The notes: generated by a model from the sequence alone, not told the origin. A stretch of 35,113 nucleotides of DNA from Escherichia coli (GCF_003334335.1 NZ_QOWQ01000044.1), one strand, 5' to 3'. Positions 25,053 through 28,114 are shown, counted from the first letter of the stretch. Program-made: numbers and translations.

Positions 25053-25091
25053 GTTGTCCTCGTCATTGTTATCATTTGTAGGGTCGAGATT

Positions 25092-25370
25092 GTTGTCGGA
25101 TGCGACGCTATGCGTCTTATCCGACCTACAGTTCAGTTCACCCCGTAGGCCTGATAAGTCGCGTCAGCGGCGCATCAGGCATCGGTTGTCGGATGCGACG
25201 CTATGCGTCTTATCCGACCTACAGTTCAGTGCACCCCGTAGGCCTGATAAGTCACGTCAGCGGCGCATCAGGCATCGGTTGTCGGATGCGACGCCATCCG
25301 TCTTATCCGACCTACAGTTCAGTGCACCTCGTAGGCCTGATAAGTCGCGTCAGCGACGCATCAGGCATCG
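25092..25370. repeat. 3 x 93-bp tandem BIME array in the prpB-prpC intercistronic region
   Basis: Unit starts at 25092, 25185 and 25278 (period 93 bp); each unit is a pair of inverted REPs; a degenerate partial fourth unit follows to about 25385. Confidence 0.92.
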
Positions 25371-25398
25371 GCTGTCGAATACAATCAACGGGCGTTTT

Positions 25399-26289
25399 TT
25401 ATTTCACCTGGCTACGGGCAAACAGGTTGTCGAGCTTCTCTTCGTACTGGTAGTAGTTGATGCTTTCGTACAGCTCGTTGCGGGTCTGCATGGTGTCGAT
25501 GACGCTTTTCTGCGTGCCTTCCTGGCGCAGGACGTTGTAGACATGTTCAGCGGCGCGGTTCATGGCGCGGAACGCTGAAAGTGGGTACAGCGCCATTGCG
25601 ACATGGGCGCTGCGTAATTCGTCGGTGGTAAACAGCGGCGTGGCACCAAATTCGGTGATGTTGGCGAGGATCGGCACCTGCACCGCATCGGCAAACTGGC
25701 GGTACATGGCGAGTTCGGTAATCGCCTCCGGGAACAACATCTCGGCACCCGCTTCAACATAGGCCTGCGCACGCTCGATCGCCGCATCCAGCCCCTCTAC
25801 CGCCAGAGCATCGGTGCGCGCCATGATCACAAAATCAGGATCGGTTTTCGCATCCACCGCCGCGCGGATCCGATCCACCATCTCTTCTTTCGAGACGATC
25901 GCTTTATTCGGACGATGACCGCAGCGTTTCGCACCAACCTGATCTTCAATATGCAATCCTGCCGCACCGGCTTTAATCATCGATTTCACGGTGCGCGCCA
26001 CGTTAAAGGCCGAAGAACCAAAACCGATATCCGCATCCACCAGCAGCGGCAGCGAACAAACGTCGGTGATACGGCGAATGTCGGTCAGCACATCATCAAG
26101 GGTAGAAATACCGAGATCGGGCAGCCCCAGCGAACCTGCCGCCACGCCACCGCCAGAAAGATAAATTGCCTGATATCCGGCACGCTGCGCCAACAGCGCA
26201 TGATTAGCGTTGATGGTGCCAACAATCTGCAATGGATTTTCTTTAGTCAGTGCAGCGCGAAACGCTTTACCTGGAGAGTGTAGAGACAT
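25399..26289 (-). CDS. prpB: 2-methylisocitrate lyase
   Basis: 296-aa ORF recognised as PrpB; AAGGAT Shine-Dalgarno 6-11 nt upstream of the ATG; sigma54 promoter upstream. Confidence 0.96.
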
Positions 26290-26334
26290 AGCCCATCCTT
26301 TGTTATCAACTTGTTATTTGCGTTGATAAAGACA

Positions 26335-26351
26335 AAGCAAGGGGTGTGCCA
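26335..26351 (-). promoter_or_regulatory. sigma54 (-24/-12) promoter of prpBCDE
   Basis: Minus strand reads TGGCAC-ACCCC-TTGCTT, a perfect match to TGGCAC-N5-TTGCW; lies about 45 bp upstream of the prpB ATG and next to the sigma54 activator gene prpR. Confidence 0.85.
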
Positions 26352-26426
26352 CAATTGCCTTAATAAAATTAAATGTTTAATTTCAATTTGTTAGAGATAA
26401 AGTCATGAACTAATCCGCAAATATGC

Positions 26427-26484
26427 GTTTCAGTTAACGTTTCAGGCAATGTTTCACCGCGTTTCATTGCAACAATTATGAAAC
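26427..26484. promoter_or_regulatory. phased GTTTCA repeats and GTTTCAT-N10-ATGAAAC dyad (candidate PrpR enhancer)
   Basis: GTTTCA at 26427, 26439, 26451 and 26461 (spacing 12, 12, 10 bp), with inverted ATGAAAC at 26478-26484; 75-150 bp upstream of the sigma54 promoter. Confidence 0.5.
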
Positions 26485-26527
26485 AAGACTAAACCCAATA
26501 TTCGGTTTCTTAACTTTGCGGTGCGCT

Positions 26528-28114
26528 ATGGCACATCCACCACGGCTTAATGACGACAAACCGGTTATCTGGACGGTATCTGTAACGCGCCTGTTCGAGC
26601 TGTTTCGCGATATCAGCCTCGAGTTTGATCACCTGGCGAACATTACCCCTATTCAGCTTGGCTTTGAAAAAGCAGTGACCTACATCCGCAAGAAACTGGC
26701 AAACGAACGCTGTGACGCCATCATCGCGGCTGGCTCTAACGGCGCGTACCTGAAAAGCCGCCTGTCAGTGCCAGTTATTTTGATTAAACCGAGCGGCTAC
26801 GATGTGTTACAGGCACTGGCAAAAGCCGGAAAACTCACCTCTTCTATCGGCGTTGTCACCTATCAGGAAACCATTCCAGCGCTGGTGGCGTTTCAAAAAA
26901 CCTTTAATTTGCGCCTCGACCAACGTAGCTACATTACCGAGGAAGACGCACGCGGGCAGATTAACGAGCTAAAAGCTAACGGCACCGAAGCGGTGGTCGG
27001 CGCAGGGCTGATTACCGATTTGGCAGAAGAAGCCGGAATGACCGGAATTTTTATCTATTCCGCCGCCACCGTGCGCCAGGCGTTCAGCGATGCGCTGGAT
27101 ATGACGCGCATGTCGTTACGCCATAACACTCACGATGCCACCCGCAACGCCCTGCGTACTCGTTACGTGCTGGGCGATATGCTCGGTCAATCACCACAGA
27201 TGGAACAAGTACGGCAGACTATTTTGCTGTATGCCCGCTCCAGTGCGGCGGTGTTGATTGAGGGGGAAACGGGGACGGGCAAAGAGCTGGCGGCCCAGGC
27301 GATTCATCGGGAATATTTTGCCCGCCACGATGCGCGACAGGGCAAAAAGTCGCATCCGTTTGTTGCCGTCAACTGCGGGGCGATTGCCGAATCGCTGCTG
27401 GAAGCAGAACTGTTTGGCTATGAGGAAGGGGCGTTTACCGGCTCGCGACGCGGAGGTCGCGCCGGGCTGTTCGAAATTGCCCACGGCGGTACGCTGTTTC
27501 TGGATGAGATTGGCGAAATGCCGCTACCTTTGCAGACCCGGCTGCTGCGGGTGCTGGAAGAAAAAGAGGTCACCCGCGTCGGCGGGCATCAGCCTGTTCC
27601 GGTAGATGTACGGGTCATTAGCGCCACTCACTGCAATCTGGAAGAAGATATGCAGCAAGGACGTTTTCGCCGTGATCTGTTTTATCGGCTGAGTATTTTG
27701 CGTCTGCAATTGCCACCACTGCGCGAGCGGGTGGCGGATATTCTTCCGCTGGCGGAAAGCTTTTTGAAAGTGTCTCTGGCGGCGCTCTCCGCCCCATTTT
27801 CTGCTGCATTACGCCAGGGGTTACAGGCAAGTGAAACTGTGCTGCTGCACTACGACTGGCCAGGCAATATTCGTGAACTGCGCAATATGATGGAACGACT
27901 GGCGCTGTTTTTAAGTGTGGAACCGACGCCGGATTTAACGCCGCAGTTTATGCAACTGCTACTGCCGGAACTGGCGCGCGAGTCGGCGAAAACTCCCGCT
28001 CCACGCTTACTGACACCACAACAGGCACTGGAGAAATTTAATGGCGATAAAACAGCAGCGGCGAATTATTTAGGCATCAGCCGGACGACGTTCTGGCGGC
28101 GGCTGAAAAGCTGA
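26528..28114 (+). CDS. prpR: sigma54-dependent transcriptional activator of prpBCDE
   Basis: ORF track starts at 26516; ATG at 26528 gives [10 protein letters not shown]... (528 aa); AAA+ Walker [14 protein letters not shown] motif, C-terminal HTH. Confidence 0.94.

Follow-up and report, generated by a model that had tools for sequence, protein, structure and literature searches.

IHF-assisted sigma54 enhancers such as glnHp2, nifH and Pu share a common arrangement: an array of activator sites lies at about -100 to -160, an IHF bend is placed at about -60, and the promoter is of the -24/-12 type. For the prpBCDE operon of Salmonella, a paper of 2004 is said to describe two dyad-symmetric sites for the activator PrpR, the promoter-proximal one being of higher affinity. 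The Salmonella system is referenced here to Horswill & Escalante-Semerena 1997 and Palacios & Escalante-Semerena 2000, 2004. Papers citing the 2000 study state that transcription of Salmonella prpBCDE needs rpoN, and the reviews and engineering papers that cite it describe a genetic requirement for IHF, sigma54 and PrpR. The Salmonella orthologue of the E. coli prpB sigma54 element, TGGCATAGCCTTTGCTTT, was identified by sigma54 ChIP-chip, and Salmonella prpBCDE was 45-fold sigma54-dependent (PMC3844500). Table 1 of PMC4987338, a review of sigma54 activators in Salmonella, gives the Salmonella PrpR enhancer as CGTTTCATGAAACG, citing Palacios & Escalante-Semerena 2004; that 2004 study is also reported to have footprinted PrpR in Salmonella. 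The co-activator of PrpR is known from the literature to be 2-methylcitrate.

In E. coli, sigma54 ChIP-seq (Bonocora et al., PMC4591121) identified a peak, OS01, with the motif GTGGCACACCCCTTGCT, the downstream gene prpB and a distance of 36. A gSELEX peak of the RpoN holoenzyme has been assigned to the prpR/prpB spacer (PMC8743547); it is used here by that spacer assignment, its coordinate of 347,864 belonging to an older K-12 coordinate frame. The prpR and prpB promoters have been described as overlapping and divergent, with a CRP site overlapping the PrpR operator, and papers citing Lee et al. 2005 describe transcription of prpR as CRP-dependent. PprpB of Salmonella reportedly exceeds that of E. 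coli about threefold in strength. For Xanthomonas citri, gel shifts show PrpR bound to GTTGCAA-N2-TTGCAAC upstream of prpB, and a change of +/-2 bp between the halves is tolerated (PMC12153269).

The DNA analysed here, referred to as the window, is a stretch of 35,113 nucleotides from the Escherichia coli chromosome. Many complete E. coli genomes match the 601 bases that span the prpB/prpR junction (26100-26700) with 100% identity, and the junction is matched, with prpB and prpR annotated, in 5220 of 5426 complete genomes. The remaining 206 gave no match, and nine of the matches sit on plasmids. The minus-strand ATG of prpB at 26289 and the plus-strand ATG of prpR at 26528 make 26290-26527 the exact 238-bp divergent spacer; for prpR a mechanical ORF call begins at an in-frame TTG at 26516. 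The original prediction had named this interval the prpR-prpB control region, and both gene identities are right. PrpB scores 561 bits against the NCBIfam equivalog NF008455 (cutoff 353) and also exceeds the TIGR02317 cutoff, PrpR scores 1012 bits against NF011953 (cutoff 703) and also exceeds that of TIGR02329, and RefSeq names both genes as here. In K-12 nothing is annotated between the two genes, and prpBCDE lies downstream. The features of the region are collected in Table 1.

Table 1. Features of the divergent prpB-prpR region, in window coordinates
Feature	Position	Strand	Basis or remark
prpB CDS (2-methylisocitrate lyase)	25399..26289	-	ORF; RefSeq; first gene of prpBCDE
prpB start codon ATG	26289	-	ORF
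prpB Shine-Dalgarno AGGA	26299-26296	-	
sigma54 (-24/-12) promoter TGGCAC-ACCCC-TTGCTT	26335..26351	-	motif, conservation, ChIP-seq identity
AT-rich tract, promoter to PrpR sites	26352..26420	.	GC minimum 0.22 at 26350-26409
Best candidate IHF core TTTCAATTTGTTA	26381..26393	+	1 mismatch to WATCAANNNNTTR
Repeat 1 GTTTCA, PrpR-type half-site	26427..26432	+	
Repeat 2 GTTTCA, invariant half-site	26439..26444	+	alignment A2, 21/21 spacers
Repeat 3 GTTTCA	26451..26456	+	
Repeat 4 GTTTCA, left part of distal dyad	26461-66	+	
Distal dyad GTTTCAT-TGCAACAATT-ATGAAAC	26461..26484	+	putative promoter-distal PrpR site; overlaps likely prpR promoter
Internal half-site TGCAAC, inside distal dyad	26468-73	+	sixth half-site, absent from the original prediction
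Inverted copy TGAAAC	26479-84	+ (GTTTCA on -)	
Possible sigma70 promoter of prpR	26467..26495	+	weak match: -35 TTGCAA 26467-72, 17-bp spacer, -10 TAAACC 26490-95
prpR CDS (sigma54 enhancer-binding protein)	26528..28114	+	Pfam, NCBIfam, RefSeq

The product of prpR is, as had been proposed, a divergently encoded sigma54 activator: its translation contains the sensor domain PrpR_N (PF06506), a sigma54-activator AAA+ domain (PF00158) and a C-terminal helix-turn-helix (HTH_8, PF02954), with the Walker A motif GETGTGKE and a sigma54-contact loop of the GAFTGA type that reads GAFTGS. An AAA+ sigma54 activator is therefore encoded directly beside the promoter described below. Many clusters of E. coli PrpR proteins (P0076, P0080-P0120) are C-terminally shortened, at 423-457 aa compared with 528, and lack the helix-turn-helix PF02954; one of them, P0103, was found on 23 contigs. 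Some of these proteins may be cut at contig ends and others may be real loss-of-function alleles, in which case the control region of those strains would be without its activator. On the other side of the spacer, the gap between prpB and prpC is 346 bp here (25053-25398) and 439 bp in K-12 MG1655, a difference that probably reflects copy-number variation of repetitive extragenic elements.

Taken as a whole, the divergent spacer is very probably a classical IHF-assisted, enhancer-dependent sigma54 control region that serves the genes of propionate breakdown (the 2-methylcitrate cycle) in E. coli. The sigma54 promoter of prpB is experimentally established. The element that had been read from the sequence, TGGCAC-N5-TTGCTT on the minus strand upstream of prpB, is present to the base, and its description as perfect is true for the 11 specified core bases: TGGCACACCCCTTGCT, on the minus strand at 26351-26336, has no mismatch, and its GG and GC dinucleotides are 10 bp apart. 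That this promoter drives prpB is borne out by the identity of the minus strand at 26352-26336 with the published ChIP-seq motif for prpB, and occupancy by sigma54 is documented by that identity and by the assignment of the gSELEX peak to the spacer. In a scan of the 35-kb window with TGGCACNNNNNTTGCW, the prpB core was the sole match, even at one mismatch. At that stringency, 82 of 100 shuffles gave at least one hit; an isolated match is thus not improbable, and the significance of this one comes from its position, its conservation and the ChIP data. The motif TGGCAY-N5-TTGC is found in 37/37 orthologous spacers, with the -12 C 40-50 bp from the prpB ATG. Transcription of prpB is predicted to start at about 26325, which is 12 nt downstream of the -12 C (26337). 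The resulting leader would be about 36 nt long, in agreement with the distance recorded for OS01.

The leader itself contains several further elements. A perfect IHF consensus, TATCAACTTGTTA, lies at 26304-16 on the plus strand, and an 8-bp inverted repeat, TTATCAAC / GTTGATAA, spans 26303-26329 with 11 nt between its arms; together they stretch from roughly the predicted start almost up to the Shine-Dalgarno sequence. In Escherichia, Citrobacter and Kluyvera a block within the leader, TTGTTATCAACTTGTTA, shows strong conservation; it might act as a translation signal or, at the DNA level, as the site of another protein. As an RNA element the leader hairpin was rejected: the predicted fold (-6.1 kcal/mol, z = -0.48) is not distinguishable from shuffles, and the predicted start falls inside the left arm. 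A search of 26150-26650 against Rfam families returned no match at E <= 1. None of the small ORFs in the spacer (27-40 aa) was supported. The pattern of hexamer conservation is not codon-like.

Upstream of the promoter, the AT-rich tract is poorly conserved except for an IHF-like core. The tract had been proposed as the place of an IHF bend, and this expectation is in keeping both with the conserved candidate core found there and with the requirement for IHF in Salmonella. Three matches to WATCAANNNNTTR with one mismatch lie within the tract, the candidate listed in Table 1 and two at 26367-82; one-mismatch matches of this kind are common, with 32 in the window compared with 24.8 expected. The listed core, centred about 62 bp upstream of the predicted prpB start, is the site at which IHF would bind. 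Of 37 spacers, about 28 have a homologous core, oriented alike and with at most one mismatch, while the two Salmonella and a few Citrobacter spacers have no core of <=1 mismatch at that spot. The only perfect IHF consensus in the region, that of the prpB leader, was rejected as a functional looping site because it lies downstream of the promoter.

The position of the core relative to the elements on either side is also conserved, and varies in steps. From core to promoter the distance is 33, 43-45 or 54-55 bp. From core to the second GTTTCA repeat, Escherichia, Citrobacter and Kluyvera have 55 bp and the others 65-66 or 76 bp, and both distances change in steps of about 11 bp. The distances between the promoter and repeat 2 fall at 88, 98-99, 111, 119-121 and 131, with a best period of 10.75 bp (R = 0.90; nominal Rayleigh p ~3e-4, in which genera that are related are treated as independent); the two Salmonella spacers, at 113 bp, are about 3 bp off phase. 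This periodicity indicates that changes in spacer length have been accepted mostly in whole helical turns. Conserved position and helical phasing are thus both found for the candidate IHF site, and whole-turn spacing is what would be predicted of an IHF-bent loop that depends on the face of the helix.

The proposed PrpR sites lie beyond the AT-rich tract. Four direct GTTTCA repeats and a GTTTCAT-N10-ATGAAAC dyad had been reported here, and all of them are in place: the repeats follow one another at spacings of 12, 12 and 10, and the arms of the dyad (26461-67 and 26478-84) are 10 nt apart. Counted from the predicted start, the array covers about -102 to -159, so that dyad-symmetric half-sites (GTTTCAT-N10-ATGAAAC and GTTTCA-T-TGCAAC) are found some 100-160 bp upstream, as expected of an enhancer. 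The half-site common to CGTTTCATGAAACG and the E. coli repeats identifies GTTTCA as the published half-site, and the suggestion that the repeats are candidate PrpR binding sites gains from this correspondence with the Salmonella enhancer as listed in PMC4987338. Which of the E. coli hexamers PrpR contacts we infer from their sequence and conservation.

Conservation was assessed in one genome per species, searched with an alignment (A1) of the PrpR-specific N-terminal domain. This gave 36 loci from Escherichia, Citrobacter, Salmonella, Kluyvera, Pluralibacter, Pseudocitrobacter, Entomohabitans and Rouxiella, and at all 36 a divergent prpB adjoins prpR. A second alignment (A2) was made of 21 representative spacers from 9 genera, with a mean column identity of 55%. 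Its invariant columns are the TTGC and TGGCA of the promoter, repeat 2 (26439-44), TGAAACA (26479-85) and parts of TTGCAACA; repeat 2 and TGAAACA are thus conserved against a diverging background, as would be expected of a PrpR enhancer. Escherichia, Citrobacter, Salmonella, Kluyvera and Rouxiella all retain the complete distal dyad, GTTTCAT-TGCAACAWTT-ATGAAAC, with repeat 4 in it, and at 26468-73 two Citrobacter genomes (spacers L017 and L033) have a perfect TGAAAC. The other two repeats behave differently. Outside Escherichia, repeat 1 reads GTGTCA, GTGCCA or GCTTCA, with one or two mismatches, and most Citrobacter and Salmonella depart from the GTTTCA of repeat 3 at 2-6 positions. The reading of the repeats as PrpR sites therefore stands for repeat 2, repeat 4, TGCAAC and the inverted TGAAAC, which are conserved in most genera, but has to be modified for repeats 1 and 3, which are lineage-specific variants.

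The published palindrome is itself distributed unevenly. S. arizonae and many Citrobacter have exact CGTTTCATGAAACG at the site that corresponds to repeat 2 of E. coli, and the spacing of 22 bp from repeat 2 to repeat 4 is the same in E. coli and in the palindrome-bearing Salmonella and Citrobacter. In the E. coli spacer the exact palindrome was not found; the best matches have 3/14 mismatches (26426-39 and 26438-51), which for this pattern by itself does not exceed chance expectation. At repeat 2 E. coli reads CGTTTCAGGCAATG, with all three mismatches in the right half, and no copy of the palindrome with <=3 mismatches and a preserved right half was found in E. coli. The E. coli sequence at 26445-56 is GGCAATGTTTCA, whereas the Salmonella and Citrobacter version begins TGAAACG. 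Across 37 spacers, the right half TGAAAC (0-1 mismatch) and repeat 3 are nearly complementary in their occurrence: those without the right half, namely six Escherichia, Pseudocitrobacter, Entomohabitans, P. gergoviae and one Kluyvera, have GTTTCA 12 bp on (GTTCCA in the Kluyvera). Two species depart from this pattern: C. sedlakii, without either element, and K. ascorbata, where each of the two is found at one mismatch.

These patterns suggest a compact palindromic layout, GTTTCA/TGAAAC, in Citrobacter and Salmonella, and a layout of direct repeats one helical turn apart, GTTTCA-N6-GTTTCA, in Escherichia, Pseudocitrobacter, Entomohabitans and P. gergoviae. That the two are interchangeable enteric PrpR layouts between which lineages have switched by half-site turnover, with indels between promoter, IHF core and operator confined to whole helical turns, is put forward tentatively, as a proposal that falls somewhat short of even chances. 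The direct-repeat layout is common to the outgroups and for that reason may be the older one. Were such switching to have occurred, PrpR would read half-sites largely regardless of their orientation, and the E. coli layout might account for the approximately threefold lower strength of its PprpB.

Other readings of the array have to be weighed against that of a PrpR enhancer. If the hexamer cluster were due to chance, or were a neutral low-complexity repeat without regulatory role, the count in the whole window would give no cause for surprise: GTTTCA occurs 25 times compared with 19.7 expected, and is not over-represented. The clustering, however, is far beyond chance. Five GTTTCA hexamers lie within 60 bp, a number never seen in shuffles: the largest cluster in 2000 dinucleotide shuffles of the window was 3 (18/2000), and in 20000 shuffles of the spacer alone, with a mean of 0.25 hits, 0 reached 5. 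The hexamers are moreover conserved across 9 genera where their flanks diverge, and they match the published PrpR enhancer. A chance origin is effectively refuted by the shuffles and by the conservation in A2, and can be given next to no credence. A more serious alternative accepts PrpR binding but holds that genuine sites are limited to the two of dyad type, namely repeat 2 plus flanking sequence and the distal GTTTCAT...ATGAAAC, so that repeats 1 and 3 would be non-functional or auxiliary and the 'four phased direct repeats' partly a coincidence of the Escherichia lineage. Such a scheme accords with the poor conservation of repeats 1 and 3 as GTTTCA beyond a few lineages, with the palindromic form of the enhancer as listed in PMC4987338, and with the two sites of dyad symmetry that the Salmonella work reportedly described. 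It is harder to reconcile with the behaviour of these repeats within Escherichia, where both are invariant in 5/6 species while the gaps vary; the bases between repeats 2 and 3 read GGCAAT, GGAAAT, GATAAT or GACACT, and the constancy of the hexamers around such variable 6-bp gaps is a footprint of selection acting on the hexamers. Repeat 3 is also present in nearly every lineage that is without the palindromic right half, which again looks like selection, and the TCA of repeat 1 is nearly invariant. The restriction of PrpR to two dyads is on these grounds rather unlikely, if by no means negligible.

The distal part of the array (26461-26495) could instead serve mainly as promoter and operator of prpR, with a -35/-10 element, a CRP site and negative autoregulation, and not as an enhancer of prpB. 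A candidate promoter, TTGCAA-N17-TAAACC, does overlap the dyad, and TAMAMC is conserved at its -10 position in A2; it would fit the published description of overlapping divergent promoters with a CRP site over the PrpR operator, and the label 'dual regulator' that PrpR carries in the K-12 annotation. The best conserved CRP-like match, TGCAACAATTATGAAA at 26468-83, also falls in the distal array. The promoter match, however, is weak: a scan of 26200-26620 for sigma70 promoter and terminator consensus sequences found nothing, so that the assignment to prpR is made with low confidence. The CRP-like match has 4/10 core mismatches, and CRP consensus TGTGA-N6-TCACA had no match with <=3 mismatches in 26290-26519. 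TGAAACA, furthermore, is a conserved inverted copy of the proximal half-site, which points to the same protein on both. A role at prpR is in any case compatible with an enhancer role, and a distal array devoted mainly to prpR seems doubtful. With the distal dyad lying across the likely prpR promoter, PrpR could use this array to regulate its own gene as well, and such autoregulation is plausible.

The scans for CRP sites brought up three further sequences. In the spacer area the sole CRP-core match with <=3 mismatches is GGTGCGCTATGGCACA at 26520-26535; it was rejected as a CRP site, since with 3 mismatches, an overlap with the prpR ATG and no conservation in other genera it is probably due to chance. 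Elsewhere in the window the same kind of scan found the control region of the lac operon, with its CRP site TGTGAGTTAGCTCACT at 8652-67 and the lac operator GGATAACAATTTCACA at 8731-46.

The preferred reading of the spacer, that of an IHF-assisted sigma54 enhancer and promoter, leads to the following model. Sigma54 RNA polymerase would be held as a closed complex on TGGCAC-N5-TTGC, while the C-terminal helix-turn-helix of PrpR would bind the array of TG(A/C)AAC / GTTTCA half-sites at 26427-26484. Sensing of 2-methylcitrate by the N-terminal domain of PrpR would free the AAA+ domain from its control and allow formation of an active oligomer. IHF, bound near -62, would bend the AT-rich tract so that PrpR contacts the polymerase, and ATP hydrolysis would then open the promoter for transcription of prpBCDE. 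[quoted passage not shown]

The control region is well characterised through genetics and biochemistry carried out between 1997 and 2005, and its architecture is already known. What is mildly new here is the existence of two operator layouts, the phase-preserving indels, the missing palindrome in Escherichia and the internal TGCAAC; these comparative points are incremental and leave the understanding of the prp system unchanged. The invariant hexamers, the alternative layouts and the whole-turn spacing could nevertheless guide operator engineering. In the pPro propionate-inducible vectors, as in current biosensors for gut propionate, it is this region that does the work, a use which gives a precise map of its sites practical value; the E. 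coli PprpB/prpR DNA in those vectors and biosensors (Lee & Keasling 2005; Lee, Newman & Keasling 2005) is the same as that described here.

Compared with other systems, the region is closest to prpR-prpBCDE of Salmonella enterica, which has the same divergent gene order, a sigma54 promoter at an equal distance from prpB, a distal dyad GTTTCAT-TGCAACATTT-ATGAAAC and an AT-rich spacer as in E. coli; requirements for PrpR, sigma54, IHF and 2-methylcitrate also match, as far as the citing papers describe them. The two differ at the proximal site, where Salmonella and Citrobacter have the perfect palindrome CGTTTCATGAAACG and E. coli has CGTTTCAGGCAATG with an extra GTTTCA 12 bp on, as well as in the distance from promoter to repeat 2 (113 bp in Salmonella and 88 bp in E. 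coli) and in their leader sequences. The PrpR operator of Xanthomonas citri is a single palindrome and not an array, and is reported as a repressor site that is unresponsive to 2-methylcitrate in vitro (PMC12153269). Its half-site is nevertheless TG(A/C)AAC, and its TTGCAAC occurs verbatim in E. coli at 26467-73, which suggests that TG(A/C)AAC may be a family-wide PrpR recognition element. With the glnHp2, nifH and Pu class the prp region, with its candidate IHF site, shares its whole layout, including a spacing tied to the face of the helix; it differs from that class in an activator that is controlled by a ligand, 2-methylcitrate, and not by phosphorylation, and in a half-site array that mixes direct and inverted copies.
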